64,000 nucleotides of DNA, taken from NCBI GenBank assembly GCA_963804955.1, contig CAWDSQ010000007.1, positions 1-64,000 on the forward strand, given 5' to 3'. Made by a program: the position numbers and the translations under genes. The notes under the pieces are model-generated. The model saw only the letters and a list, made by a program, of their open reading frames with translations, was not told where the DNA came from and did not search any database. This stretch comes from an uncultured delta proteobacterium (lineage in GTDB: Bacteria; Desulfobacterota; WTBG01; CAIYCZ01; CAIRTM01). This document shows, in pieces, positions 12,532 through 58,793 of this stretch. Each line of letters begins with the position of its first letter. The first letter of the stretch is position 1.

Positions 12532-13314
12532 CAAAGGATACCTCCCGGTAATTTTAGACTTTTCCAAACTCTCCAGGTTGACTGCAATTGCAGCGCTCTC
12601 TACGTATGTGGGAACAGTTAGTGGCTGCAATTCCACAAAGCAATCAGAGAACACATTGCATAAGCTTTTAGTTAGACGTTCAACCAGCATATAGGCTCCA
12701 ATGATATATAAATTTTTCGGCAAAAATCTTCATATAAACAATGCAGATTACTGACATCTTTTCGGCAAAAAAATTTTTTGCATAACTTTATATTACACGA
12801 AACATGCCATGTTCAAAAAAAGGCTAAATTTTAGACCTAATAATTATAAAAATAACGGTATTAATGCTATTTTTTAATGCCTTTTTTAGTTTCATTATGG
12901 GCTAATTTAAAACTATTTTTATAAAAAAGCCTGCAAATTTTTTACGTGAAAGCGTTTTTTCATATACTTTTCATGTTGTCTAAATGCTTAAAAAGTGTAC
13001 CATCATACGCTTTTGTAGCGTGCATTTGTGAACCCACCTGCTTGCTTTCAACACAAAATCAGACTATATCTAGCCTGGCAAACCTGCTTGCGTTTTGGCA
13101 GAAAGTTCATATATGATGAGGTAGTATAAAGCTAAATAAACTGTTGTTGTTCGACGACGAACAGTAGACTCTGCCATTGTTCGCAATGATTACCATACGC
13201 CACGGCGTACTCCACGCAATAACCTGCGCTGGAACTTTCACGAGACAGTCCTTTTTAAACAACAAAAAACTTCTGTTTGCCGGGACCCTAATAATCCTAA
13301 TGGTGTGGTGAAAT

Positions 13315-46323: not shown

Positions 46324-46677
46324 CAATACTCCTTTCAAAAACATTCACCTTTTACCCTCTTTTTATTTGAATAACTTCGCATATCTGAACATTTGGCGAG
46401 TTATCAAATGAGAGAGAGGCACCGTAATAAATTTGTACTATATCGGCTTGGGGGGCTGAGTGTCAATATAAAATAATCAGTTAAAAAGACAAAATCATGC
46501 ATTTGGAGCTAATAAGCTGACGTTGCGTTTATTTATTATTCTGGGACCAAAACCAGTACAGCACCCGTAACGGCAATCCGGGCATCGTGGAACTCAACAC
46601 GAACGATCTCAGTACCATAAGCGGCACTACTTGTATTCGCAAACAACCTTCAATTGAAACGCACGAGCCTCACCAGA

Positions 46678-46717
46678 AAATAAGCCCCCGTGACAAACAT
46701 CGTCAGAGGGCTTATTT
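46678..46717 (-). terminator. Terminator-like hairpin closing the nitrogenase-like cluster
   Basis: AAATAAGCCC ... GGGCTTATTT inverted repeat. Confidence 0.6.
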
Positions 46718-46738: not shown

Positions 46739-47700
46739 TTACTTCTTTACCGGCATGCTTCCAGTTGCTCAAGCACTCAGCTGATCATCATTCCATGCAC
46801 CCAGGTGCACTACGGGAATTGAAGAAGGCACTCCTGACCGGTCCACCATGGAACGGAATTTCATGCTCGCTGTGAATGCTCTCCGCGCTTATGTTGACGG
46901 CGAAACCAGTATCTTTTTGACGCCGCCGGCAAGTAGCCCCTGCACAGCGGCTGTATGTCCGGCTGCTTGAATTCCATATAGGCAAGAGCGATATGAGCTC
47001 TTTTAAAGCCTTCGGCCGCAAGCAGCTTTTTTGTTTCCAGCCGGAATGAGTTCTCCTGCTCGGGCTGTGTTTTAAATAAGGCGTCCCAGGATGCGGGCTG
47101 GCCATGGGCACCAGCAGAATGCCGATATCGGATTTGTCCATATCCACTGAGGCCCTGAGTGCGCGCTCGACGTTCATGCGCATCAGCCGCTGGAGTTTTT
47201 AGCGTATCCGTGAACGCACAGCTTCACGCCGTGTTTTTCAGGCTGCAGAGCTCGATCTCTTTCGGCCCATAGCGGAGTGATCCGAATCGGTAAGCCAGAC
47301 ATTGCGAAGTACACGCCGGTCAAGCCCCCTCATGTAAGGCGCGGGCTGCCGCGACATCGGCATGCTGGGCGTCGTTCGGAAGCGGCGATATGCACACGGG
47401 AATTGAGGATCGCACTTTTTCCGGTATAAAGCCTCGATCCGCTCCATGGATGCGTATTTCATGCGGTTATGAAAGCTCTCGGCGCTTAAATTGACCGGAT
47501 TCAACCAGGACTTTCTTGAAAAAAAACGGCCTGAAGGGCCAGGCACAAACGGCACGCCGGTTTCATCCGATTTCATGTCGGATGGCATGATTTCCATGCC
47601 GGCAAAAGCGCCATCGTACGTCTCTAAGGCTCGCCGTGGGTAAAACAGATGATGGCTGTATGCCCAGGCGATGTTGAGCGCACCGGCGCGGGCTGTTTTT
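46739..47700 (-). pseudogene. Class II (CbiX/SirB/ferrochelatase-like) chelatase gene broken by multiple indels
   Basis: Stitched across frames: GHTAIICFTHGEP, DETGVPFVP..FRPFFF, DIGILLVAHGQPASW...EQENSFR, IALAYMEFKQPDI, GGVKKIL, ISAESIHSEHEIP, LGAWND. Confidence 0.7.
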
Positions 47701-48044
47701 CAAATACCGGCGTCCCAGGTACACGGGCAGGCGATAAGCTACCAGCGAATGCCGCACATCAGCAGAGCCCGAGTCCATAGTCACCTGCGGACCTTGATTG
47801 CAAGCTCGCACGATCATGCGCATCAGACGTCAGGAATTTTTGAGCGTATCGGAAACGCACAGCCGGCACGCCATATTGTTCAGGCTGCAATGCCTCGATA
47901 TCGTACTGCGAGACCCCTGCGACAAGGGAATAAACGCTGCAATCATACCGTATACAAAACCCCGACATTTAAAAGAATAAGGCGGTCAGTCGCCGTCCTG
48001 TACGGCGACTAAAGCGCCGCTCCTCCGTTAACATTCATAAATCG

Positions 48045-48069
48045 GTAGGGGCTCAAAATTTTGAGCCCC
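48045..48069. repeat. GTAG-headed REP-like perfect palindrome
   Basis: GTAG overlapping the 22-bp palindrome GGGGCTCAAAATTTTGAGCCCC. Confidence 0.5.
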
Positions 48070-48082
48070 GGCATTGGAACCG

Positions 48083-48856
48083 TTACAATTTTATAAGAAA
48101 CTGCTCCGGCCTCTTGGACCGCGGCGCGCGCAACGACTTCAAAGGTGCGGTTCTTCATGGCCGGGTTCTCCAGGGCATCAACGCACACGCGGGCAATCTG
48201 CTCGCGCTTCACGCGGCCCGTGATCTTGCCGCCCTCGCCGAAGGCGACTTCATCAGGACTTTTACCTTCGTGTACCCGCCGGGCCGTATGATCGTGTAAT
48301 CGATCCCGCAGGACTGAATGAATGCCTCGCTCTTGTCCCTTGTGACTCAGCACGCTCATCATTGGCCATCTATACATGGGCGATACGGCATCGCGGCTGT
48401 TGCCAACCCCGACGGATGAAATGACAACGATCTGCTTGAGGCCCTTTGCCTTGGCGGCCCGCGCAAGGTTCTGGTTACCCATATTGTCGATCTTGTCGTT
48501 TTCCGACCCCTGAAGGGCTTTTTGGAGCCGATGGCGCTTATCATGTAGTGCGCGCCTTCCATGGCCTTCTCAAGAACGGCACAGAGGTAAGATCCCCTCA
48601 GCGCACGGTCTACACCCGTGAGGCCGCAGGTTGGAGCCGAGTCAAACGGCGGCACCATGAGGGCCCGCACCTTGTAGCCCCGCTTCAAAAGCTCCTGCAC
48701 CACCAGCCTGGCCTGTCCCTGCCGTGGCGCCTGCAACCACTACTGTTTTTTCACCGAGCCATACTTGCCTCCTTGCAATATATTTTGTGGATAGCGCTTC
48801 GCAGGCCCAACCGACATCCAAGAAAAAACCAATAAAACTAAAGGACCGATATGCAT
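48083..48856 (-). CDS. NAD(P)H-binding atypical SDR family protein (frameshifted in this sequence)
   Basis: VVVAGAT...RLVVQELLKRGYKVRAL, GNQNLARAAKAKGLKQIVVISSVGVG, REQIARVCVDAL...NRTFEV in different frames. Confidence 0.75.
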
Positions 48857-48858
48857 TT

Positions 48859-50586
48859 TTACATCCCAACTCTTTTCTGAACTCCTCCACCGTCGCGCCA
48901 ATGACAGTTATCCCGTGATTTGCCGCGGGCATAATCCTCGGTGCCGGAAACTGCGGCCTGACGGAAGGGCGACGGCACAAGCTCGAGCATGCCCTTTGCC
49001 TCGTCATCCCACGGCATGGTGAAGGTGAGGCTTGAGATCGGCACTTCTTCATCTTCTTCTGCGGCCGGGGGAGGTACTGCGTCATCGCCAAAGACAGCCG
49101 AAAACTTGGCCTTGAACTTGGTTGGCGTAAACTTATCGGATACTTCCCGAAAGATTGTTACCGTCACATTAGTGCCCCGCTCTTTGGCGATCTGCTCGGC
49201 AACGGAATGCAGCTTTTTTAGGGCTGTAGCACGCACGAAGTGCGGTATCATCTCGCCAACCTTTATCATGGCCTGCTCTGCCGCGATGTCCCAGGGCACT
49301 GAGCCCGTGGAGATGGAGCCCATCATATCGCCCTTGGTCTCAAGGAATATGCCCATATAGACCTCGTTCACCAGGCCCTCAACAAGGTACTTGGCGCCCA
49401 TAAAGCCCATAAACGGGCAGTTCTCCGAGCTCAAATACCCGATGGTGGGAATATCCGAGAAAATAAAATTTTTGAACCCCTCATCCATGCTCACTTTCTT
49501 ATCATAGAAGTTGCCATAGATTACCATGGGGCCTTTTTCAACGAACTTGTCGCGCTTCTCCTCAATGGTGGGGCATATGAGCACATCATCGCACAGGGCC
49601 TCGAGGCGCTTTGCCGCATCGTGGTTGCTCACCGCAGTCATGACGATGCCAACGCCCACCTCTTTATTCAAAAACTCGCTGATGCCCACGGCATAGGTGT
49701 TGGCATTTTCAAGTGACAATGCCGCGGTCATTTCAAAGGTGACGGCAAAGACCATATTTGACGAAATGAACTCGAAGGCATTGGCCATCGTTTCTTTCAG
49801 ATACGGCGTCGCATCGATCTTGAAAAAACCGGCGACGCTCTCAAGCCATGCCGCAGAATTCCCGAACCCGATGGGGATAATGTCCGCCATATATGGAATG
49901 CCGAAGCGTTTCTCCATTTCCTGAGCCACCCGCACACCGCTGTCATAGGGGTAGATGCAGAGATTGAGCTCTGCCTGCGCAGCATTTTTAATCTGGCCGA
50001 TGGTTGCGCCTGCAGTGTAGACGCAGTTGACGGTGACGCCGATGCCGGCGAGCATCCGCGTCAGCTCATACACGTCGGCGCGCCAGTTGAAGGTCGAAAA
50101 CGTTGGGCCGATGATGTTGACCGACCGGGGGACTTTTTTGACCGCCGGGTCGACAAGATCAAGAATGCGGATAAAGGCAGTCTCCTTGCCCTCCACAAGC
50201 GAACCGCCGATGGGCGGGTGGATAATGACAGTGTCTTTAAAGCCAACCTTCTTCACAATGCCTTCCACATCGTCGCGCGTCACCTCGACAGTGGGAGCGG
50301 TCACGATTAAAATTGCGCCGGGCTTTTTTGCCGCGATCTTCTCGAGCGTGGTCTCCATGCGGTCTTCGGCGCCCTGCATGATGTTGGCATACGAGAGGTT
50401 GGTCGAATACAGCTCGCAGGACCAGTCATTGACCAGGGCATTCACATGCTGGTTTATGTAGCAGCCCGGGGGCGAATGAAAGATGGTGTCCGCGCCCTTG
50501 ATGCCCAGGCAGGTCCAGAGAGCACCCTCAAAAGCCGAGGGAGTGTGCAGCTCCTGCATTTTGAAATCTTTTTGTGTCTCATTCAT
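48859..50586 (-). CDS. Nitrogenase component-1-like subunit, BchB/BchZ-like, with two C-terminal PCP_red-like domains
   Basis: PSAFEGA, HSPPGC, VNIIGPT..TFNWRAD..EL.RML, PFMGFMGA; tails WDIAAE...IPHFVR and WDDEAK.MLELVPSPFR. Confidence 0.85.
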   Translation of the reverse strand: MNETQKDFKMQELHTPSAFEGALWTCLGIKGADTIFHSPPGCYINQHVNALVNDWSCELYSTNLSYANIMQGAEDRMETTLEKIAAKKPGAILIVTAPTVEVTRDDVEGIVKKVGFKDTVIIHPPIGGSLVEGKETAFIRILDLVDPAVKKVPRSVNIIGPTFSTFNWRADVYELTRMLAGIGVTVNCVYTAGATIGQIKNAAQAELNLCIYPYDSGVRVAQEMEKRFGIPYMADIIPIGFGNSAAWLESVAGFFKIDATPYLKETMANAFEFISSNMVFAVTFEMTAALSLENANTYAVGISEFLNKEVGVGIVMTAVSNHDAAKRLEALCDDVLICPTIEEKRDKFVEKGPMVIYGNFYDKKVSMDEGFKNFIFSDIPTIGYLSSENCPFMGFMGAKYLVEGLVNEVYMGIFLETKGDMMGSISTGSVPWDIAAEQAMIKVGEMIPHFVRATALKKLHSVAEQIAKERGTNVTVTIFREVSDKFTPTKFKAKFSAVFGDDAVPPPAAEEDEEVPISSLTFTMPWDDEAKGMLELVPSPFRQAAVSGTEDYARGKSRDNCHWRDGGGVQKRVGM

Positions 50587-50587
50587 G

Positions 50588-51824
50588 TCAGCCTCCATAT
50601 TTCCGCACAAGGCCCTGCCAGGTTTCATAGACGGGCTTGTGCATGTTTTTGAAGAAATTAGTGCCAAGATCGATTGCATAATCGTAGCCGTACTCACACA
50701 GGTACAGCATGTTGATGAACGTGGGCACGAGGCGCGACACGCACTCGGGCTGTGCTTGAAATTCAACCGACACGGCCGTGGGCTTAATCCTGTCGATTAC
50801 GTCGCCGATCAGGTCGAAATCCTCCTCGATAAAGGTAACGCCGTAGCGCTCCTGCATGAGCTTTTTTTCCTGCTGGTAAAATTTATTCTTCATGGACGGC
50901 ACCACAAAAACCTCGGCGCCGAACTCGGCAAAAATCTTGCCGACTGACACTTCGTTTGCCGGTCCTGCCACCATGAGCATGCGGACCTTCTCTTTGGCAA
51001 AACGCTCCCGGATTTTCTCAAGCTCCGGCTTCACGCGCTTTTCCTCTTCATCCACAAGGTCATGCAGCTTTTGATTGTTCATCCTGTCGGCAATAGCGCG
51101 CAGGAAGTTTGACGTGCCCTGAATGCCCGTGGGAATCTCGATAAACTCAACCTCGCCGCCGAAGTTTTCATTCAGGTGCTTGCAGGTAAGCCAGGGTGTT
51201 ATGTGAATGGGATAAGTATTTTTCCGCGCAGACGATCTTAGCCATGCTGTCGATATGGGGCGTGGGAAAGACGAAGTACGGGATATCGGCCTTTTTGAAA
51301 AACATCTCAAGAGAGGCAAGATTGCCCGCGTCCTGGCCCGTGCGGCCGACAATGCCGATAGAGCCGGGCACCTTCTCCTGTTTCTCAAACGTGTCGAGCA
51401 CCGCAACCCAGGCGGCATCAGAGCCCAGGGGCATGGAGCGCGGATAGTTGAAACCGGTAAGGCAGGTGCTCACTTTCAGCTCCGGGATTTCCTTTTTGAG
51501 CTCTATGATAACGCCTTCAATATCCTCGCCGATAAGCTGGGGAATGCAGGTATTGATGATGACGATGACTTTAGGGTGATATTTGTTATAAAGGTTCTTG
51601 ACCTGCAGCTTTAGGCCTGCCTCGCCGCCGAAAATGACGTCGCTTTTGTTGACAAGCGTACCGGCAGTCACAAGCTGCGCCGGTCGGCATGACATGGAGC
51701 CCACCTGGTTCTGGTACGAGCAGGGCTGGGGCCCGTGCAGAAGCGGTATGACGCCTTCGATTTTGCCCAGGCTTGCCAGGGCCTGAATCGTGGAGCAGCA
51801 GTGTTCATAGTGTTTCAGGGGCAT
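50588..51824 (-). CDS. Nitrogenase component-1-like subunit, BchN/BchY/CfbD-like, about 411 aa (1-nt frameshift near 51220)
   Basis: HCC, LHGPQPC, DVIFGGE..L, NTCIPQLIGEDI; later PTGIQGT.NFL..IA and YGYD; removing one A from the A5 run joins the two ORFs. Confidence 0.85.
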
Positions 51825-51972
51825 AGGGACCTCCTAATGTAAATTCCTGATTTTGGATTGCCGTATTTTGCATCCCGCAGATGTATTCCTTTTTTTAGCG
51901 AAATCCGCAGCCCACCCTGCATGTTGTCGACCGATTTCAACCAGTGAAGAGCTTCGGCTAATCAAATAATTT

Positions 51973-52848
51973 TTATTCTGCGTCCTGCACTTGCTTCAGT
52001 GCTTCCTTCCCGCAGCCTGGGCCCACCAGGCATGGCAGCTCTTCAAAAGTGAACGACGCGGGCACGGAAAGTTCCTTGTTGTTCCAGATCGACTCTGACA
52101 ACTGCCGAAACGCCTCGCACTCGGCTGTATCTGGCGCATGCTGGAAGAGTGTCAGGCCCTTGCCGGAGCACTCTTTTATCTTTTCGCTGTAGGGAATAAA
52201 TCCGACAAGATGGCTGCCAAGCTTTCGGGAAAATTCATCCAGAATGGTCTGCTCATCCTTAAGCTCCCGGCCATTGCCGATAATGCCGCCGAGCCTGACG
52301 CCCGAACGGGAATTGAAGCGCGATACAGCCTTGCAAATATTGGAGGCGGCAAATAAAACCTCCAGCTCGCCGCTGCTCACGATATAGACCTCGTCGGCAT
52401 GGCCTTCGCGAATAGGCATGGAGAAACCGCCGCACACCACGTCACCGAGCACGTCATAGAGAACCACATCGAGCTTCAGAACCTCCATCACATTGAGATG
52501 CTTGAGCGCCTCTATGGCCTCCACCACCCCCTTGCCCCCGCAGCCAAGCCCGGGGTCAGGCCCGCCGCTTTCCGCACAGAAAATCTTGCCGGAGCAGGTA
52601 TCGTTGAGAGGGCTTTCAAACACCACCTCGTCCATGGTGAGGGATTTCACCTCAAAGTTCTTCTTCCGCAGAATCCCCAGCACTGTCTGGGGCATTTTGC
52701 CTTTCAGCAGCAGACGCGTGCTGTCATGCTTGGGGTCGCAGCCCACATGCAGAACCCTTAATCCTTTGGCCGCAAGGGCAAAAGTTATATGGGATGACAC
52801 CATGGACTTGCCGATACCTCCCTTACCGTAAATAGCTATCTGGCGCAT
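51973..52848 (-). CDS. NifH/BchL/BchX-family Fe-protein ATPase, copy 2
   Basis: YGKGGIGKSM, GCDPKHDST, ESGGPDPGLGCGGKG, DVLGDVVCGGF. Confidence 0.93.
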   Translation of the reverse strand: MRQIAIYGKGGIGKSMVSSHITFALAAKGLRVLHVGCDPKHDSTRLLLKGKMPQTVLGILRKKNFEVKSLTMDEVVFESPLNDTCSGKIFCAESGGPDPGLGCGGKGVVEAIEALKHLNVMEVLKLDVVLYDVLGDVVCGGFSMPIREGHADEVYIVSSGELEVLFAASNICKAVSRFNSRSGVRLGGIIGNGRELKDEQTILDEFSRKLGSHLVGFIPYSEKIKECSGKGLTLFQHAPDTAECEAFRQLSESIWNNKELSVPASFTFEELPCLVGPGCGKEALKQVQDAE

Positions 52849-52905
52849 AGTGAGACCTCTGTGATATTTGTTGTGGCGAATTTCTTAATTATTCGTTCAG
52901 AAAAT

Positions 52906-53010
52906 TTTGTTGGGTTCGCCCTGTTACAGCAGTTTTTTCACCATCACCTGATTTTTTGCCGGTGGGATTGAGTAACAGAGGCAACATTTTTGTCCGGGCT
53001 TAACCCAACC
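52906..53010. repeat. REP-like intergenic element (similar copy at 28405-28510)
   Basis: TTTGTTGGGTTCGCCC ... TCCGGGCTTAACCCAACC; the ends are partly complementary. Confidence 0.55.
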
Positions 53011-53052
53011 ATCTAGAATGCTAAAAAGGTTGTCGGCATTCACGCCTGCCAG

Positions 53053-53892
53053 CTAATTTATATACGGCAGCCACCAGTCATAGAGCTCTTCAAACTCAAG
53101 GGTATTCGGAATGACAAGATTTTTATTGTCAAACACCTTCTGCCCGATCTCGCGGTAGAGATTCGCCTCCGGCGAATCCGGCGCGCATTGAAACACGGTT
53201 TCGCCATCGCCGCCGCATTGCTTCACGGTCTGGCTGTAGGGAATGACGCCCACGATCTGCGTGCCGATCTTTTGAGCAAAATCAGTCACCATCTGAAGTT
53301 CATTCTTCACGCGTCGCAGGTTAACGATGAGCCCGCCGAGCTTTGAGCCGGCCCGAGCGTCAAAGCGCTTGATTGCCTTTGACACATTGCTGACTTGATA
53401 GAGCGCCTCGAACTCGCCGCTGGTCACCACATAGGTTTCCTGCGCAAAGCCCTGGCGTATGGGCAGGGAAAAACCGCCGCAGACGACATCGCCCAGGATG
53501 TCATAAATAACGACATCGATATCAAGGGCCTTGAATATACTGAGTTTTTTTATCGTGTCGATGGCTTCAACCACGCCCTTGCCGCCGCAGCCCACCCCCG
53601 GCTCGGGCCCGCCGCTTTCAGCGCAGTAGATTTTGCCGCCGTTTTCAAACTGCAGGGGCGATGTGGTGATGATGTCCTCGGGAGAAAGGTCGTCGTACAT
53701 GAAATCATTTTTGCGCAGCACGTCAAGAATCGTGGGCGGAAAGTCAGGCAGCAGAAGGTAGGTGCTGTCATTTTTCGGGCTGCAGCCCATCTGCAGCACC
53801 TTCATTCCCCGCTCGGCAAAAGTGTAGGATAGATGGGATGCAACCGTCGACTTCCCTATGCCGCCTTTACCGTAAAGTGCTATCTGCCGCAT
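53053..53892 (-). CDS. NifH/BchL/BchX-family Fe-protein ATPase, copy 1
   Basis: YGKGGIGKST, GCSPKNDST, ESGGPEPGVGCGGKG, DILGDVVCGGF. Confidence 0.93.
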   Translation of the reverse strand: MRQIALYGKGGIGKSTVASHLSYTFAERGMKVLQMGCSPKNDSTYLLLPDFPPTILDVLRKNDFMYDDLSPEDIITTSPLQFENGGKIYCAESGGPEPGVGCGGKGVVEAIDTIKKLSIFKALDIDVVIYDILGDVVCGGFSLPIRQGFAQETYVVTSGEFEALYQVSNVSKAIKRFDARAGSKLGGLIVNLRRVKNELQMVTDFAQKIGTQIVGVIPYSQTVKQCGGDGETVFQCAPDSPEANLYREIGQKVFDNKNLVIPNTLEFEELYDWWLPYIN

Positions 53893-53910
53893 TGACTTCC
53901 TCCTTAATCC

Positions 53911-54384
53911 TTATAATGGACAGCGACATCGTTTCATAATTGAGCTTGCGGCGCGCAGCGATTTCAGCAGGCGCGTACGCTGCTTTTCGTCAAGACAACC
54001 AAAAATATTCATCAGCTCCTGCTTACGCGCCTTTAAAATACTGCCGTGAGCTTTTTTCCCGCTGTCTGTCATCTGCACTTTAACGACCCGCCGGTCACCC
54101 GTGTCGCGAATGCGCTCGACAAAACCCTCGTCAACGAGCCTGTCGACGACCTCTGTCATGCAGGGCATTTTCACATTGGCGATTTTGCACAGCTCGCCCA
54201 TGCTGTAGCGCCGGTCTTCATGAAAGGCCGACATAGCCTTGAGCTGCGAGCTGTTGACCGGGAACCCCATCAGCCCCTTGCTGCTCATAACCATTTGCTG
54301 AAAAAGGTCCGTAAAAAGATTACGGATCTCGATTAAATGCATTTCTATTTCGGTAAGCTCACTGAGTTGCTTGCTGTCCCCCAC
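53911..54384 (-). CDS. MarR family transcriptional regulator
   Basis: SMGEL...VKMP.MTEVVDRLV.EGFVERIRD..DRRVV.V..T..G. Confidence 0.92.
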   Translation of the reverse strand: MGDSKQLSELTEIEMHLIEIRNLFTDLFQQMVMSSKGLMGFPVNSSQLKAMSAFHEDRRYSMGELCKIANVKMPCMTEVVDRLVDEGFVERIRDTGDRRVVKVQMTDSGKKAHGSILKARKQELMNIFGCLDEKQRTRLLKSLRAASSIMKRCRCPL

Positions 54385-54483
54385 GTTACCCCATCCTTTT
54401 GCAAAGATGATCTGACCACAGACTGCTGCGACAGATCAAAATTTCAGTAAAAAATATTTCATTAAAAAAAAGTTCAATTATGA

Positions 54484-54514
54484 AGTATATAGACTGTGAA
54501 TTAATTTTTGTCAA
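54484..54514 (-). promoter_or_regulatory. Sigma70-type promoter for marR-nifH-like operon
   Basis: Minus strand TTGACA-17 nt-TATATA(CT). Confidence 0.55.
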
Positions 54515-54747
54515 GCCAGGATTTTTTATTTTTTTGGACTTTGAAATATCCCTGTTGTGCGGCAGAGAGTGTCATGCTGATTGCATATCTGCATCCGCCA
54601 ATAAAAAAACAGGCTTTTCCCAACAACATTGTTGCGGTCTGGCCTGTTTTCTCTGTGCGAGGAGACTGTACGCGTCATGGTCGATGCCCCGCCGCGAACC
54701 GGATATGGAGGGGAATCAAGCAGCATGCAGCATCACGTATATGGCGG

Positions 54748-55218
54748 CTAGGGCTTGGTTGTCTTCTTTAATATGCCCGAAACTTTTCGCAAGGCCGTGA
54801 GCAGTTCATCCTGATCCTTCTGTGAAAGTTTGCCAAAAAGATTGCCCATTTCCTCACGGCGGCGGCCTATGAACTTGTCGTGAATCTTTTTGCCCGCATC
54901 CGTCAGCGCCACTTTGACCACGCGGCGGTCCTTGGTGTCGCGCACCCGCTTGAGCAAGCCCTCGGACTCGAGCCGATCTACCATCTCGGTCATGCTGGGC
55001 ATCTTCACCAAAGCGTTCCTGCTCAGCTCCGTCATACTGTACTCGCGGTCTTCGTGAAATGCGGTAAGCGCCTTCATCTGCGAAAGCGTTACGGACATAT
55101 CGCTTATACGGCGGCTGCCCTTGACCATTTTGTTGAATATCTGCACGAAAAGGTTGCGCACCTCTATCATGTGTTCTTCAATCTCAGTGACTTTTTCCAT
55201 AAAAACCTTATTATCCAT
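54748..55218 (-). CDS. MarR family transcriptional regulator (paralog of 53911-54384)
   Basis: YSMTELSR..LVKMPSMTEMVDRLE.EGLLKRVRD.KDRRVV.V.LT..G. Confidence 0.92.
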   Translation of the reverse strand: MDNKVFMEKVTEIEEHMIEVRNLFVQIFNKMVKGSRRISDMSVTLSQMKALTAFHEDREYSMTELSRNALVKMPSMTEMVDRLESEGLLKRVRDTKDRRVVKVALTDAGKKIHDKFIGRRREEMGNLFGKLSQKDQDELLTALRKVSGILKKTTKP

Positions 55219-55257
55219 ATGCGGCCTCATTTTAGAATTTTTAATATTTCATTTCCT

Positions 55258-55286
55258 AATATATAAATGGCATATTTTTATGTCAA
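55258..55286 (-). promoter_or_regulatory. Sigma70-type promoter for upstream marR
   Basis: Minus strand TTGACA-17 nt-TATATT. Confidence 0.6.
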
Positions 55287-55630: not shown

Positions 55631-57289
55631 ATGAAAATAATCTACGCATCCGATATTCACGAGTCTTATAAAAATCTGCAGAAACTCTTTCGTGTGACGG
55701 ATGCCGACCTCTACATAATTGCAGGCGACCTCCTCTATAGCGCCTTCCCTTCCTGGGAACTTGCCGCACGCTTCACGGAGATGCAGCAGCGCGTCTATTC
55801 CTGGGGCTTAAGCCGGGGCATGACGGGCACACGCTTTACTATGGCCCGCACCATGCTTGAAACGCCGGAATCTTCTTCAATTGAACAGGCGCTTGCAAAG
55901 GAATTTCTTCGCCTCACAGAAATTGCACAGGCAAGCATGTTTCAAAAATACGGACGCATAGCAAAAATTTTTACCGCATCCGGCAAGACCGATATCATAA
56001 CCATCCCTGGAAACTATGATATGGATCTTAACAAAACCGAACTTGCATCATGGAACCTGCATCTGAAAACACGCATACTAAACGGCATTACCATCGCCGG
56101 CTATGGCGGATCACCGGTCTTCACCCCCGGCATACCGGACAATCTGCGCATAGCATACAATGAGCTCAGGCTGGATGGACTGCTCGTGTCTGAGCCGTAC
56201 GACTTTTTCATAAAAACCAACCCCGACATTATCCTGCTGCACCAGCCTGCCTATGGTTATCTGGATACAATTGCCACCTACGGCAGCATCGGCAGTATCG
56301 GCGTGCGCGATTTTATCGACCACAGCAGTGTACGCCTCGTGCTCAGCGGCCATATGCATGAAGACTGGGGTGCGATCTTCAAGCAGGGCAAAGTCTTCCT
56401 GAACCCTTCAAATTTCGGCCGCGTCGTTGAAATTCACCGGATTAAAAAAGGCGGCTACTTTACTGAATTTACCATGGACGGCGCTACTTTCAGGGGGGGG
56501 ATGCTGCGCCAGATCGACGGCGGCAGGGCATACGATATTGAGCAGTGCATTATGCGCGACGACAAATTCCGGCTGCTGGTGATCGACCTCAAGCGATACC
56601 GCTATCTCTCAAACATAAAAAAACGCCAGAAGCATATCCGCGCCATCCGCCTCTTCAATACGCTGCGGGGGTTCTTTCAGAAACATGAAACCGAGGCAAC
56701 CCGCACGCGCATAGAAGCACTGGAAAAATTCTGCCGGAAACTGCATAAAGAAGGCCATGACATAGCATTCCACCTGCTTGGCTCTCTTAATTTCGGCATG
56801 GCGACCGACACATCGGATCTTGACACCGTGCTCTACTTCCGCGACCCGGAGCTTACCGTGCCCGATGATGTCTCCTACCCTGTGCCCGACTACGTTCACT
56901 CACGTTTGGGAGAGCTGAAAGACAGCGGCATTGATCTTTCCATCTGCGATTGTTTGAATCTTGCCCGCATCGAGGAGGCGATCATCACGCAGGATGTGCA
57001 CAACACGCTTCTGCAGCGTTTTATTTTTTATTACGGGACCTGCCGCTGCGTGAATGCAGAGCCCATCAAGGAGGTTGAAAACCTGCTCATCCACAAGCAG
57101 CCGTTCCGCTTTGATGTGGAAGGGGAGCTTGCCGATGTCTTCCGCATGATGATCAGCAGCTTTCGCCACTCCTTCTCATTTAAAAAATACCAGATGCGCC
57201 TGCGTGAAAAAGGCCTGACCGTGCCGCCCTACATTGAAGAAAAAATCTGGGAGTATCTTGAGTATCGGGATGAAAAGCAGAAAAAATAA
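55631..57289 (+). CDS. Calcineurin-like metallophosphoesterase fused to a putative pol-beta-type nucleotidyltransferase domain
   Basis: SDIH, AGDL, PGNYD, LLHQP, SGHMHE, LNP; C-terminal LLGSLNFG....SDLD motif. Confidence 0.8.
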   Translation: MKIIYASDIHESYKNLQKLFRVTDADLYIIAGDLLYSAFPSWELAARFTEMQQRVYSWGLSRGMTGTRFTMARTMLETPESSSIEQALAKEFLRLTEIAQASMFQKYGRIAKIFTASGKTDIITIPGNYDMDLNKTELASWNLHLKTRILNGITIAGYGGSPVFTPGIPDNLRIAYNELRLDGLLVSEPYDFFIKTNPDIILLHQPAYGYLDTIATYGSIGSIGVRDFIDHSSVRLVLSGHMHEDWGAIFKQGKVFLNPSNFGRVVEIHRIKKGGYFTEFTMDGATFRGGMLRQIDGGRAYDIEQCIMRDDKFRLLVIDLKRYRYLSNIKKRQKHIRAIRLFNTLRGFFQKHETEATRTRIEALEKFCRKLHKEGHDIAFHLLGSLNFGMATDTSDLDTVLYFRDPELTVPDDVSYPVPDYVHSRLGELKDSGIDLSICDCLNLARIEEAIITQDVHNTLLQRFIFYYGTCRCVNAEPIKEVENLLIHKQPFRFDVEGELADVFRMMISSFRHSFSFKKYQMRLREKGLTVPPYIEEKIWEYLEYRDEKQKK

Positions 57290-57340: not shown

Positions 57341-57898
57341 CTATTTTTCATCTCTTTTCCATATAACATTGCGCAAACCTTCGCGGTAGCACAGGCGTCG
57401 GATTTTATAGGGAAGTATGGTGACAATATTGAAATTGTATGATTCCGCAGCCTCTCCGAGGCCCTGCGCTTCAAGCTGTTTCAAATACCGTGAGTATGCG
57501 CGAATTTCATGAAAACGGGTTATATCTTCATTTTTTTTAAAAACATTGGCGATGCCCCAGACCTGCAATCCTGAGGCCCCGAAAAAATCAACACCGGGGT
57601 TGTAGGGGTCGGCGATGCTGTAGGATACTCTTTCGTTTGCATGCATGTTGGCTATTTTGCCCCCACCCTCGCAGAACATATGCACGGTAAGGCCGTTATT
57701 GAAATACTCCACGGGCGTGCACCGGGGTTCATTATTTTTGCAGGTTGCCAGGTGGAGCACGTTGTGGCTGCTGATATAGGTGATGGCCATTTCGATAAAC
57801 TCTTCTTCCGTCATGGCCGCGCGCATTTTGATTCCGGCCATTTCAAAGGCCTGCAGCTCTTTGGCGTTTGGTTGCGGTACGATCACTTTTCCCATCAC
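57341..57898 (-). CDS. Pyridoxamine 5'-phosphate oxidase-like (split-barrel) protein
   Basis: LHLATC.NNEPRCTPVEY, GGKIAN..AN.RVS..I, SGLQVWG.A. Confidence 0.8.
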   Translation of the reverse strand: MMGKVIVPQPNAKELQAFEMAGIKMRAAMTEEEFIEMAITYISSHNVLHLATCKNNEPRCTPVEYFNNGLTVHMFCEGGGKIANMHANERVSYSIADPYNPGVDFFGASGLQVWGIANVFKKNEDITRFHEIRAYSRYLKQLEAQGLGEAAESYNFNIVTILPYKIRRLCYREGLRNVIWKRDEK

Positions 57899-57922: not shown

Positions 57923-58793
57923 TTATTCGTGGTGGTGTGCATAGACTGTTTTATCCAGATTTTTCACAAGGCCCGGAATCAGGCTGAACGGGAAGCATAC
58001 CAGAAGCTCATCATCCTTCAAGCGCATGAATGTTCTCCCGCCGTGGTCGCCTGCGGTGAAGGCAGGCCGGTTATTGGCAAGGGTTGAGGGAATGGTCATG
58101 AGGCAGGTTGATTTGCCCGCAAAGCCGGTGATAATCTCGCCGGTATCAAAAGCAAATGCAGTCGAGATGGCGGCCAACTGCGCAGGCGTAGCCGGAAAAA
58201 GCACGAGTTCTGGCCTGGTCTATCTCTTCAAAAGCACCGATGACCATACCCTTAAAAATATGGCTGAAGCGGGAAAATGCATCCCTGTTTTTTGTCATCG
58301 GCTCTCGCGAGGCATACAGGTTCCCTTCGCCAACGACGGATGCTTCAAGAGCCGCATCAAACTCCTCGCGCGTGACGCGTTTGGCGCCGAGGCCCATGTT
58401 TGCGCATCCTCCGCACATGCTCGCTTCAGCGGAAAAAAACAGCGGTGCCCCCTGGCCCTCGAATATGTCGCCGCATATGGCGCACCAGAACTGCGGGCCT
58501 TCCTCAACCGGAACATTAGAGGGCGCTTTGTCAAAAAATTTCATAGCCGCAATAGCTCGTGAAAGGCCGAGTTTATTCTTAAGGCAGAAAGCAAGTCTTT
58601 TCACATCGAGCATGGCATCTATAGCGCCCCTGCCAATGGCTCCGACAGGGCAATAGCGCACGCAGACCCCGCAGTCGCAGCACATGTCGGTGACGGCAAC
58701 TGTATCTTCCCGGCGGACGATGGCACGGTTAGGGCAGTTGCCGATGCAGGATCCGCACCGGGCGCAGAGTTCATCATTGATAGTAAACGGCAT
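57923..58793 (-). CDS. 2x[4Fe-4S] ferredoxin domain fused to DUF169-like domain (frameshift near 58218)
   Basis: CARCGSCIGNCP and CCDCGVCVRYCP, then WC, C.G..NMG; continues PELVLFPATPAQL...STC...GD.GGR...LKDDELLV.FP in the next frame. Confidence 0.75.

Follow-up and report, generated by a model that had tools for sequence, protein, structure and literature searches.

Candidate core operon of an uncharacterised nitrogenase-like reductase group with a predicted tetrapyrrole substrate

What does a nitrogenase-like (NFL) reductase act on when its subunits match none of the characterised enzymes of this kind? The question is raised by a 64,000-nucleotide stretch of contig CAWDSQ010000007.1 from an uncultured delta proteobacterium (the window), which encodes two regulators, two Fe proteins and a pair of component-1-like subunits in one run of genes. 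Here, we compare this locus with its relatives by profile scores, trees and gene neighbourhoods. We consider it fairly likely that the window holds the core operon of an NFL two-component reductase group not characterised before, one that acts as an ATP-driven tetrapyrrole reductase and is set apart from Nif and Bch enzymes by scores and trees, from Cfb enzymes by scores and from Group VI by the description of the latter. The substrate is probably a haem-, chlorophyll- or bile-pigment-like ring, reduced in oxygen-free habitats. In this genome, the dehydrogenase and chelatase genes downstream of the core are degraded.

Layout of the locus

Open reading frames (ORFs) and Pfam profiles place the cluster on the minus strand in the order marR1, marR2, H1, H2, N and B, and the profile scores bear out the run of two MarR, two NifH-like and two component-1 genes that a first-pass annotation had read from the letters. 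The first regulator, marR1 (54,748–55,230; 160 amino acids; Pfam MarR 44.0 bits, cut-off 24.6), is intact and collinear with its counterparts in the relatives L004, L005 and L110 (L numbers denote loci), and marR2 (53,911–54,384; 157 amino acids; 41.3 bits, same cut-off) is its paralogue. Neither reaches an NCBIfam equivalog, the best, HpaR, Rv0880 and BilQ, all lying far below their cut-offs. A sigma-70-like promoter 5′ of marR1 (55,258–55,286, minus strand; TTGACA-17-TATATT, 11 of 12 matches) is a consensus match only, in a region with 11 such sites against 8.3 expected. The Fe proteins H1 (53,053–53,892) and H2 (51,973–52,848) score 290.3 and 304.8 bits with Fer4_NifH (cut-off 25). They are followed by N (50,588–51,827), a component-1 alpha-like subunit on which Oxidored_nitro falls on two ORFs (107.9 bits over profile positions 1–198 and 49.5 bits over 208–343), and by B (48,859–50,598), a beta-like subunit with an Oxidored_nitro match of 195.6 bits and, as noticed on first reading, a PCP_red tail (35.4 bits, cut-off 32.5).

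Four further minus-strand genes or remnants and a putative terminator flank this core. Downstream lie the remnant of a gene for an NAD(P)H-binding (NAD_binding_10/NmrA-type) dehydrogenase ('SDR'; 48,084–48,800; tblastn pieces in frames −3 and −1), that of a gene for a membrane-anchored class II (CbiX/ferrochelatase-like) chelatase (46,742–47,902; tblastn pieces in three frames) and a hairpin with a T-rich tract, read by eye as a possible terminator (46,672–46,713, minus strand); with a loop above 8 nt, the hairpin is not among the hits of our terminator scan, whose site count is at chance level. Upstream are a PNPOx-like FMN-binding protein (57,341–57,898; 185 amino acids; PNPOx_N 30.8 bits, cut-off 28.1) and a gene with Fer4 (4Fe-4S ferredoxin) and DUF169 matches (57,923–58,793) that aligns in two frames to an intact 289-amino-acid protein of L005.

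Integrity of the genes in this genome

Several of these genes are broken. Relative to L004 and L110, N has a single additional base at about 51,216, which divides it into ORFs 51,168–51,824 and 50,588–51,418, and tblastn with the L004 protein aligns residues 10–213 in frame −3 and residues 196–421 in frame −1; because N is frame-broken in the window, the enzyme may be dead here. The last 15 or so residues of B, which is 93% identical to the L004 protein over residues 1–579, are scrambled by +1 nt at about 48,906 and −1 nt at about 48,864, and the tail is unlike the family consensus. An indel at about 52,034 shifts the frame of the last 13 or so residues of H2, giving a tail unlike five relatives, and a 1-nt insertion relative to L110 at about 53,928 shifts the last 7 or so residues of marR2, the tail of which is unlike those of L004, L005, L110 and L111. 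The first-pass annotation had missed these breaks. Its SDR and chelatase genes likewise prove to be multi-frame remnants without an intact ORF. The SDR remnant matches NAD_binding_10 on ORF 48,009–48,482 only (31.6 bits) and differs from L110, the nearest relative, by some 14 indel events within 0.7 kb. The chelatase remnant, recognised by tblastn pieces against a 403-amino-acid L005 protein and without a Pfam match on its ORFs, departs from L110 by 32 indel events over 1.0 kb, is without its first 57 or so codons and has segment 47,896–47,683 duplicated. An alpha/beta-hydrolase gene present in L110 is missing from the window.

These observations bear on whether the operon in this one genome is a dying relic, its accessories pseudogenes and its N newly knocked out, a reading compatible with any function. 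The +1 frameshift in N is absent from eight of nine relatives examined, L005 being broken at another site, and it stands beside the shifted tails of B, H2 and marR2 and beside accessory genes in which indels far exceed the genome-wide background and are joined by gene loss, truncation and duplication. However, frameshifts are common throughout the assembly: of 142 genes sampled, 32, including hemB, hemL and cobA-hemD, align in more than one frame, so the core-gene breaks may be assembly errors, from which they are indistinguishable, and a core density of roughly one break per kb does not clearly exceed the error level. H1, moreover, has no indels relative to L110, the core proteins keep 93–96% identity to L004, and no run with the window's own strain was found for a base check. 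We think it somewhat less likely than not that the operon is a dying relic here.

Two Fe proteins with NifH-type motifs

Across all 38 H1 and all 39 H2 sequences compared, no variation occurs in the GKGGIGKS motif, at the columns of Cys94 and Cys131 (reference numbering) or in switch II, as expected of the NifH-type Fe protein of an NFL system. By sequence, H1 and H2 are P-loop ATPases, each keeping the two cysteines that bridge the [4Fe-4S] cluster in NifH-type dimers. The H2 motifs are canonical, with the switch I aspartate in 39 of 39 sequences; switch I of H1 is degenerate, serine replacing the conserved aspartate in 32 of 38. Against NCBIfam models, H1 and H2 score 300 (300.5) and 296 bits with nifH (cut-off 394), 297 and 295 with CfbC (cut-off 402), 208 and 218 with BchL (cut-off 345) and 176–183 with BchX (cut-off 331). 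In the Fe-protein tree, H1 and H2 each form one clade (support 99/96 and 94/94) and group with NifH/NflH, as clades separate from NifH itself and from BchL and BchX.

A component-1 pair outside the Bch and Nif clades

N and B, both above the Oxidored_nitro cut-off, form the alpha/beta pair expected of an NFL system. Cys20, Cys45 and Cys103 of N occur in 68 of 68 family members and align with Bch and Nif cysteines, and N thereby retains all three cysteines of the cluster site in NifD, NifE, BchN and BchY. Cys42 of B occurs in 69 of 81 members and is tyrosine in the other 12, the gammaproteobacterial versions; the column is aspartate in BchB (Asp36, numbered from PDB alignments) and cysteine in BchZ and NifK. 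B thus supplies a cysteine at the aspartate-ligand position of BchB together with BchB-type PCP_red tail domains. All 81 members have Glu285 and Cys210, and the DPOR proton donor Asp274 has no clear counterpart in the family. The delta versions of B carry PCP_red twice: L004 and L009 score 38.8 and 49.1 bits with two stretches each (cut-off 32.5), and L019 scores 24.4 bits, below that cut-off, with one. The tail is common to B and to the BchB and BchZ references scanned and, to our knowledge, Pfam finds PCP_red otherwise only in BchB and BchZ.

Known identities were rejected on NCBIfam scores. For DPOR, B scores 150–159 bits with BchB (cut-off 490) and intact L004 N scores 54.7 with BchN (cut-off 420), alongside the low BchL scores above; the phototroph controls in the same scans reach 596–639 (BchB), 483–521 (BchN) and 443–450 (BchL). 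For COR, B scores 115–118 with BchZ (cut-off 529), BchX also lies well below its cut-off and no BchY match is listed. For nitrogenase or NifEN, nifE reaches 82.5 bits with L004 N (cut-off 505), nifD 46 (cut-off 654) and nifK 43 (cut-off 427), and nifH lies below its cut-off. For CfbCD, CfbD reaches 38.9 (cut-off 268), CfbC also falls short, and the two core subunits contrast with a homomeric CfbD.

Trees agree: famN and famB, the family's N and B sequences, each form one clade (support 100 and 100) outside BchN/B/Y/Z and NifD/K/E/N, in trees with Bch references from one gammaproteobacterial order only and none for CfbD, MarDK, IsrDK, NfaDK, Group IV-D/E or Group VI. Three uncharacterised Nfl pairs of Desulfobacterota (L107–L109) fall outside both clades. 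The view that the system matches no characterised group is supported for the groups that were compared, and the trees proposed for it separate all four proteins from Bch and Nif.

In profile–profile comparison with hhalign, N resembles the alpha subunits of Nif/Nfl type (184 and 151) more than it does BchN (42) or BchY (60), and B matches an uncharacterised Nfl beta subunit (260) as well as it does BchB (252). A quick tree does join N with BchN and BchY at 91% support, over a branch of length 0.036 at which long branches meet. With N nearer to Nif/Nfl, the Fe proteins with NifH rather than BchL or BchX, and B equally close to an Nfl beta subunit, it is chiefly B, with its tail, that speaks for kinship to tetrapyrrole reductases, and the earlier label 'BchN/Y-like' for N is weak.

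Carriers and the case against DPOR or COR

The H1-H2-N-B core was found in Desulfobacterota and Gammaproteobacteria, at 18 genome loci and 78 metagenome loci; by B gene, these reduce to 72 non-redundant groups. The family is patchy, with N-B pairs of its type in 4 of 201 sampled Desulfobacterota genomes. In the window's genome (G000; 4.26 Mb, 87.4% complete), N and B are the sole Oxidored_nitro genes and H1 and H2 the sole NifH-like genes by tblastn. All five gammaproteobacterial carrier genomes likewise have only this component-1 pair, against four in phototrophs of the same order. The carriers are thus apparent non-phototrophs, as first suggested for the window, and apparent non-diazotrophs, judged from scans of the component-1 and Fe-protein families.

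This distribution completes the case on whether the enzyme is simply DPOR or COR. JGI gives the name 'light-independent protochlorophyllide reductase B subunit' to 19 of 120 listed B homologues, and BchB is the best NCBIfam match of B as well as, with ChlB, its best match among solved structures (E about 1e-18). Yet the scores reach about one third of what the cut-offs demand, the subunits sit in clades apart from BchN/B/Y/Z and BchL/X, the aspartate ligand of BchB is replaced by cysteine or tyrosine, there are two Fe proteins, and neither G000 nor any of the five gammaproteobacterial carriers has a second component-1 pair. Membership in DPOR or COR is already refuted by these comparisons, and we give it next to no credence.

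Genes beside the core

Neighbour genes were counted over 38 well-flanked non-redundant groups. MarR genes precede the core in 23, consistent with the ligand-responsive type of control proposed for the window. Accessory genes each occur in at most about a quarter of the groups: the chelatase in 10, a geranylgeranyl-reductase-family flavoprotein 3′ of B in 7, Fe_bilin_red-like genes in 6, PNPOx-like genes in 6, DUF1302 in 6 (in runs with DUF1329, BNR and MMPL genes), the NAD(P)H-binding SDR (NAD_binding_10) in 5 and the DUF169/ferredoxin cluster in 4. In G000, accessory islands of the DUF1302/DUF1329/BNR/MMPL type are found on contigs C5 and C14, apart from the operon. Conservation of the neighbourhood therefore holds for the core, kept in 72 groups, but not for the chelatase and SDR, which are recurrent accessories outside the conserved unit; with both also degraded in the window, the designation 'reductase-chelatase system' has to be dropped.

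Several accessories belong to tetrapyrrole-associated families. The best NCBIfam scores of the relatives' chelatases are with CfbA (nickel chelatase) or HemH; the 403-amino-acid L005 protein reaches 41.4 bits with CbiX (cut-off 22), and a 335-amino-acid protein of L099 reaches 65.1 with CbiX and 57.5 with ferrochelatase. Among solved structures, the L110 SDR matches ChuY/ShuY anaerobilin reductase (E 5e-8 and 1.6e-7) and biliverdin IX-beta reductase (E 1e-4). Fe_bilin_red-like genes lie 3′ of B in L009 (54.4 bits, cut-off 31), L119, L123 and L153. In L010 (= L120), hemC, cobA-hemD, hemB and hemL stand immediately upstream in the same orientation; no other non-redundant locus shows this linkage. 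A B12 radical SAM gene, scoring best against BchE (195 bits), occurs in 3 of 72 groups and adjoins N-B in L101/L168, L165 and L183; genes for a His-rich protein and a P-type ATPase adjoin N-B in L167 and L174 and share its contig in L101/L168. Neither a ChuW-type enzyme nor a haem oxygenase turned up beside family loci. These several independent links to tetrapyrrole enzymes support the tetrapyrrole side of the earlier proposal of a reductase for a tetrapyrrole or another ring.

Aldehyde:ferredoxin oxidoreductase, 3-hydroxyacyl-CoA dehydrogenase and alpha/beta-hydrolase genes also recur near the core; these neighbours would suit a non-tetrapyrrole substrate as well.

A predicted pigment-reducing role

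We propose that an H1/H2 Fe protein, perhaps a heterodimer, would hydrolyse ATP and deliver electrons of low potential to a [4Fe-4S] cluster lying between the subunits of an (N-B)2 core, which would reduce C=C bonds of a tetrapyrrole-type ring; ligand binding would cause the two MarR repressors to release the promoter. Because the neighbours comprise hydrophobic-substrate transporters, hydrolases and three families including bilin reductases, the operon may serve to take up haem, chlorophyll-derived or bilin pigments from outside and convert them anaerobically. The neighbours do not suggest bacteriochlorophyll, F430 or nitrogen fixation. The functional links all come from gene neighbourhood, and ring reduction is the predicted role.

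Much of the same neighbourhood could instead belong to biosynthesis of an unknown reduced metallo-tetrapyrrole cofactor, following the logic of F430, in which a chelatase is succeeded by a nitrogenase-like reductase and tailoring enzymes. The CbiX/ferrochelatase-like genes with their CfbA and HemH matches, the hem genes upstream in L010, the BchE-like radical SAM genes and the His-rich protein with its P-type ATPase would all fit such a pathway. However, a chelatase is absent from 28 of the 38 groups and degraded in the window, the hem linkage is confined to a single non-redundant locus, the family is patchy among Desulfobacterota, and no enzyme that might use such a cofactor came to light; MarR control, for its part, is usual for catabolic or detoxifying operons. 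We regard cofactor synthesis as unlikely, although it deserves some weight. A substrate outside the tetrapyrroles altogether, such as a hydrophobic aromatic or lipid-like molecule imported by the DUF1302/DUF1329/BNR/MMPL system and reduced or cleaved by the NFL enzyme, seems to us improbable. It has an analogy in MAR and ISR, NFL enzymes that cleave small organosulfur compounds, and would be in keeping with the closeness of N and the Fe proteins to Nif/Nfl rather than Bch types and with the recurrence of hydrophobic-compound transporters, the oxidoreductases and hydrolases just mentioned and the geranylgeranyl-reductase-family flavoprotein. Set against it are the PCP_red tail that B shares with BchB and BchZ, doubled in the delta versions, and four recurrent tetrapyrrole-associated neighbour families (chelatase, Fe_bilin_red, ChuY/BLVRB-type SDR and BchE-like radical SAM). 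MAR, furthermore, needs a NifB-like gene and an extra cluster ligand set (PMC13474568, sections 2.4 and 7), neither of which was found beside family loci.

Relation to known systems

The predicted tetrapyrrole reductase shares features with several known systems. Its accessory SDR belongs to the family of ChuY/ShuY and biliverdin IX-beta reductase, recalling anaerobic haem degradation by ChuW/ChuY, and the Fe_bilin_red-like genes 3′ of B recall ferredoxin-dependent bilin reductases; in contrast to those systems, however, these relatives are accessory genes here and not the reductase itself. A term search of the papers on pre-PcyA (PMC10151467, PMC13446030) did not return the word 'nitrogenase'. 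CfbCD with CfbA (F430 synthesis, Group IV-B NFL) resembles the family in that H1 and H2 score nearly equally with CfbC and NifH and in that a minority of family loci carry a small-chelatase-like domain best matched by CfbA. It differs in its scores and in that CfbD is homomeric (PMC13474568, section 2.4), whereas the family has two different core subunits, conserved together.

Group VI NFL of Elusimicrobia (NflHDK), as described in section 7 of PMC13474568 and in bioRxiv 10.1101/765248, is likewise uncharacterised and has been proposed from context to reduce a tetrapyrrole; these sources give it no NifB and simple clusters, a NifH sister to Group V and loci rich in radical SAM genes. On that description, the present family is set apart by H1 and H2 that group with NifH/NflH, by radical SAM genes in few of its groups and by its occurrence in other taxa.

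COR (BchX with BchY-BchZ, Group V NFL) has a heteromeric core, a beta-type subunit with a fourth-ligand cysteine, one PCP_red stretch in BchZ and a cysteine at the position of B Cys210; it differs in its clades and in the BchZ and BchX scores. DPOR (BchL/ChlL with BchN-BchB, Group V NFL) has an aspartate ligand where B has cysteine or tyrosine and an Fe protein of BchL type where the family has two paralogues siding with NifH, and N is nearer to Nif/Nfl alpha subunits than to BchN; family scores lie far below the DPOR cut-offs, the delta versions of B carry a doubled PCP_red, and carriers are without a second component-1 pair. DPOR nevertheless shares with the family an ATP-dependent Fe protein and a heteromeric alpha/beta core, in which the alpha-type subunit has three cluster cysteines and the beta-type subunit ends in PCP_red.

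Operon organization in the window

The cluster lies wholly on the minus strand, running from 55286 down to about 46670, and begins with a promoter-like site (TTGACA-17-TATATT, a consensus match, at 55286–55258). Two MarR-type regulator genes follow, marR1 (54748–55230; Pfam MarR 44.0 bits, cut-off 24.6) and marR2 (53911–54384; 41.3 bits against the same cut-off), and then the genes for two NifH-like Fe proteins, H1 (53053–53892, 279 amino acids; Fer4_NifH 290 bits) and H2 (51973–52848, 291 amino acids; 305 bits). The component-1 beta-like subunit, B, is encoded at 48859–50598 (Oxidored_nitro 195.6 bits; PCP_red 35.4 bits, cut-off 32.5), and the gene for the component-1 alpha-like subunit, N, lies between H2 and B. 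Downstream of B is a stretch of about 2.1 kb without a sound open reading frame (ORF), and a hairpin with a T-tract at about 46713–46672 stands at the end of the cluster. A terminator scan returned 12 sites where 11.8 were expected, none of them at the operon end, and a repeat search of the marR region found short, weak repeats only and no clear operator. The gene kinds listed in the first-pass annotation, which had continued the cluster past B with an ‘SDR’ and a ‘chelatase’, are borne out, but not the state of the genes: N occupies two frames and the last two are present only as pieces in several.

Divergent from marR1 is a gene for a 552-amino-acid calcineurin-like phosphoesterase (55631–57289, plus strand), which is syntenic in two related loci, L004 and L005, but did not turn up next to family loci at greater distance. 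At the other end of the window, a giant minus-strand ORF of at least 4,241 amino acids (1–12723, open at the contig start) consists of repeated MopE-type motifs that putatively bind copper (Pfam Cu-binding_MopE 942 bits); it has 64% GC and a GC skew of about −0.3, against about 50% GC in the rest of the window.

Assembly error and decay

Searched by tblastn with the intact N of the close relative L004, the window matches residues 10–213 in frame −3 (51827–51216) and residues 196–421 in frame −1 (51268–50591), because of one extra base at about 51216. The tails of H2 and marR2 are also frame-shifted (at about 52034 and 53928, respectively), and the C-terminal 15 or so residues of B are scrambled by a gain of one nucleotide at about 48906 and a loss of one at about 48864, so that the family consensus terminus, ...VIGATVEEFRKELGM, is missing. 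A programmed frameshift in N was considered and rejected: N is read in a single frame in eight of the nine relatives examined, and in the ninth, L005, it is broken at a different residue, which makes such a frameshift unlikely.

The rest of the window had looked clean, and frameshifts confined to the operon would have spoken for a clean pseudogene. We rejected this explanation, as breaks occur across the genome (G000). When ORFs from all related loci were searched by tblastn against the whole genome, 32 of 142 sampled genes (46,878 amino acids), on 12 contigs, aligned in more than one frame, a few of which may reflect broken queries. About four breaks fall within the 5 kb of the C16 hem operon (138400–143600; hemC, cobA-hemD, hemB and hemL), and the DUF169 gene of the window (57923–58793) is also split in frame. 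The G000 assembly is therefore error-rich, its gene calls need care, and about one break per kilobase in the core genes is not callable as decay. The segments downstream of B stand far above this background. Compared with L110, the nearest relative with a complete downstream region (B 93% identical), the SDR segment, which survives as pieces in frames −3 and −1, carries about 14 indel events in 0.7 kb, and the chelatase segment, in pieces in three frames, 32 events in 1.0 kb, or 20–30 events per kilobase overall. Structural changes accompany them: an alpha/beta-hydrolase gene that separates the two in L110 is absent, the first 57 or so chelatase codons are missing, and the segment at 47896–47683 is a duplicate. 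We read the SDR and chelatase as truly degraded, or else very badly assembled.

Among public sequencing runs, the best match contained 24% of the sampled window words, and the four run sets compared correspond to contigs of relatives, from another strain than that of the window. Against the window, the relatives' contigs show indels at, among others, 48906, 48711, 48505, 48268 and 46854–46953; none of the public runs listed with window words was an RNA run. The window copy is flawed, with an error-rich assembly and wrecked accessory genes, and the intact relatives L004, L009 and L110 are therefore the ones to study.

A compact family with paired Fe proteins

Homologues of B number 153 at E ≤ 0.001 in a word-indexed collection; among the 120 listed, identity ranges from 49 to 94% and most are 575–590 amino acids long. 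Only 16 of 1.84 billion cluster representatives (50% identity) match at E ≤ 1e-30, three of them as full-length proteins and the others as fragments. This is a small, compact family. Our locus set comprised 18 genome loci and 78 metagenome loci, whose B genes formed 72 groups at 95% identity, 38 of them well flanked (upstream flank of 3.2 kb or more, downstream flank of 2 kb or more). Conservation covers the unit [MarR]-H1-H2-N-B, with H genes in 22 and MarR in 23 of the 38 well-flanked groups; the remaining loci are N–B pairs without Fe proteins of their own, and one genome, G080, has three N–B pairs and one H1–H2 pair. These G080 genes lie at the loci L099 (contig C8) and L100 (contig C49); the two extra N–B pairs are 4 kb apart, the second of them being followed by flavoprotein, chelatase and TPR genes.

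The genome loci come from metagenome-assembled genomes of Desulfobacterota and Gammaproteobacteria. Among 201 sampled Desulfobacterota genomes, 61 had Oxidored_nitro matches, mostly nif, and family-type N–B pairs occurred in four (G000, G153, G217 and G080). G000 itself has no Oxidored_nitro gene beyond N and B and no third NifH-like gene. All five gammaproteobacterial carriers have this component-1 pair alone, against four for phototrophs of the same order.

Every H1 (n = 38) and H2 (n = 39) sequence retains the P-loop, the two cluster cysteines and switch II. The switch I Asp position, which we take to be Asp39 of Azotobacter NifH, is Ser in 32 of 38 H1 proteins and Asp in all 39 H2 proteins and all 10 references; the remaining switch I residues are variable in H1 and invariant in H2. 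The H1 proteins that have the Asp are the six gammaproteobacterial ones only. That a canonical ATPase is regularly paired with a degenerate one suggests that H1 and H2 may form a heterodimer. The gammaproteobacterial versions (L016–L019, L150, L151 and L161) show three joint differences: the H1 switch I Asp is kept, a ligand Cys of B is replaced by Tyr, and only one PCP_red stretch is present in B, with a score under the cut-off.

Neighbours of the core and candidate substrates

Neighbours vary between loci. Counted per well-flanked group, the most frequent is a CbiX/ferrochelatase-like chelatase (10 of 38; best hits CfbA and HemH), followed by a geranylgeranyl-reductase-family flavoprotein (7 of 38). 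Six groups each have an Fe_bilin_red-like protein (54.4 bits in L009, cut-off 31), a PNPOx-like FMN protein, a classical SDR, a protein of about 300 amino acids (u308) and DUF1302, in runs with DUF1329, BNR and MMPL; an NAD_binding_10 SDR occurs in five. Of the neighbourhood described in the first pass, the H1-H2-N-B core recurs, and the chelatase and SDR accompany it as recurrent accessories in a minority of groups. Against solved structures, the L110 NAD_binding_10 SDR matched the anaerobilin reductases ChuY and ShuY (E = 5e-8 and 1.6e-7) and biliverdin IX-beta reductase (E = 1e-4). For three other accessory proteins PDB sequence searches were uninformative, with best E values of 0.009 for the chelatase (CbiX), 0.03 for the Fe_bilin_red-like protein and 0.09 for the PNPOx-like protein. 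One non-redundant locus (L010) has hemC, cobA-hemD, hemB and hemL directly upstream, and some family loci contain a BchE-like B12 radical SAM gene, a His-rich protein and a P-type ATPase. A recurrent block (L101/L168, L167, L174, L181 and L183) carries DUF169, N–B, MarR, the His-rich protein, the P-type ATPase and a 320-amino-acid membrane protein, and continues with Fe_bilin_red-like genes (often two), a 140–160-amino-acid protein and the BchE-like radical SAM gene; it hints that metal handling is tied to the reductase system. Electrons could come from the products of aldehyde:ferredoxin oxidoreductase and flavodoxin-like genes, which stand upstream in L006 and L008.

Two accessory islands of G000 lie away from the operon, on C5 (84500–100040) and C14 (206970–221460). 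Both are of the DUF1302-DUF1329-BNR-MMPL-PNPOx-NAD10-FDBR-u308 type, with hydrolases and without N–B genes, and their genes are those that flank the reductase as accessory genes in other genomes. The C5 island has many frame breaks; all genes of the C14 island are in single frames.

From gene content, our best-supported guess is that the H1-H2-N-B reductase would act on a tetrapyrrole-type substrate. Such a substrate would imply either an unknown cofactor or the first enzymology for degrading haem or chlorophyll rings without oxygen; the latter would, to our knowledge, fill a gap in the understanding of carbon and iron cycling under anoxia. Between conversion of external pigments and cofactor synthesis, we favour the former as the probable role; the MarR regulators, the hydrolases and the uptake systems point this way, as do three bilin-reductase families. 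In a far more specific model, which we consider unlikely as a whole, H1 and H2 would give the nitrogenase superfamily its first Fe protein that is obligately heterodimeric and functionally asymmetric, one ATPase site being canonical and the other having a degenerate switch I. It would drive a third kind of tetrapyrrole-ring reductase, acting as the ATP-dependent, dearomatizing first step in anaerobic breakdown or salvage of haem and chlorophyll pigments that have sunk into anoxic waters and sediments, and several N–B cores, such as the three of G080, would draw on one H1–H2 pair while differing in the ring or substrate attacked. As far as we know, a heterodimer of this kind would be new for the superfamily. 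The interest lies in the family as a whole.

Relation to known nitrogenase-like systems

The known jobs of nitrogenase-like (NFL) enzymes are few, comprising nitrogen fixation, two chlorophyll-synthesis steps, F430 synthesis and two sulfur-compound cleavages, and gene context is rarely helpful for the remainder, according to a 2026 review (PMC13474568). The context of the present family is unusually telling, with chelatases, bilin-reductase-like proteins, a ChuY-type dehydrogenase, BchE-like radical SAM and hem genes, and the family also has a fixed pair of Fe-protein paralogues. The review lists NFL Groups I–III, MSL, VII, IV-A to F, V and VI, and no group in its list, as far as accessible, has the features of the H1-H2-N-B family (PMC13474568). 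Term searches for the family or the paired Fe proteins gave none in the accessible portions of that review, bioRxiv 10.1101/765248, bioRxiv 10.1101/2020.09.01.277905, PMC8890362, PMC10151467 and PMC13446030, and we found no description of either in the full-text literature outside subscription journals and supplements. Two adjacent NifH-like genes also occur in another uncharacterized NFL cluster (L109, G152 contig C29), with a NifB-like radical SAM gene and D- and K-like genes, so that the pairing of Fe proteins is not a feature of the present family alone. In L107 (G071 contig C11), an uncharacterized NFL D/K-like pair directly follows a gene resembling subunit O of bzd-type benzoyl-CoA reductase (359 bits, cut-off 449).

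None of H1, H2, N and B reaches an NCBIfam cut-off, and true BchN, BchB, BchY, BchZ, BchL, BchX, NifH, NifD, NifK and NifE proteins from the fetched genomes pass the same models. H1 and H2 score 300 and 296 bits against nifH (cut-off 394), 297 and 295 against CfbC (402), 208 and 218 against BchL (345), and 176 and 183 against BchX (331). B scores 150–159 bits against BchB (490) and 115–118 against BchZ (529); the intact N of L004 scores 82.5 against NifE (505) and 54.7 against BchN (420), and the window fragment of N scores 38.9 against CfbD (268).

Trees were built with those true Bch and Nif proteins as references, CfbD, Mar, Isr, Nfa, Group IV-D/E and Group VI lying outside the set. In a carefully searched Fe-protein tree of 37 rows (13 H1, 13 H2 and one single H; L005, L007, L013, L015, L020 and all metagenome loci were left out), H1 forms one clade (99/96) and H2 another (94/94). 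The two clades are sisters (92/98), their inner branching is mirrored across delta and gamma carriers, and together they side with NifH/NflH, away from BchL and BchX. In a quick-search core-subunit tree of 62 rows, the family N and B sequences each form one clade (100), outside BchN, BchY, BchB, BchZ, NifD, NifK, NifE and NifN. The first-pass view that the system matches no characterized group therefore stands on separate clades and sub-threshold profiles, with CfbD, Mar and Nfa references outside the tree set; of the tree comparison proposed there, the Nif and Bch part was run, and each of the four proteins fell in its own clade. The quick tree also joined family N, BchN and BchY in an unresolved trio (support 91, branch length 0.036, long branches), a grouping we do not rely on because profile comparison contradicts it: family N scores 184 against Nfl alpha, 151 against NifD/E, 60 against BchY and 42 against BchN. 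For family B the corresponding scores are 260 (Nfl beta), 252 (BchB) and 239 (BchZ).

The residues of the core subunits can be set beside the same systems. In N, Cys20, Cys45 and Cys103 are present in all 68 sequences and align with the Bch and Nif ligands, and Cys56, also in 68 of 68, is family-specific. In B, Cys210 and Glu285 are invariant, and Cys42 is found in 69 of 81 sequences, with Tyr in the 12 gammaproteobacterial versions; the same column holds Asp in BchB and Cys in BchZ, NifK and NifN. Delta B proteins have two PCP_red stretches, whereas gammaproteobacterial B, BchB and BchZ have one each. Taken together, the tree and the profile scores describe a mixed family, in which the Fe and alpha proteins are Nif/Group-IV-like and the beta protein is Group-V-like.
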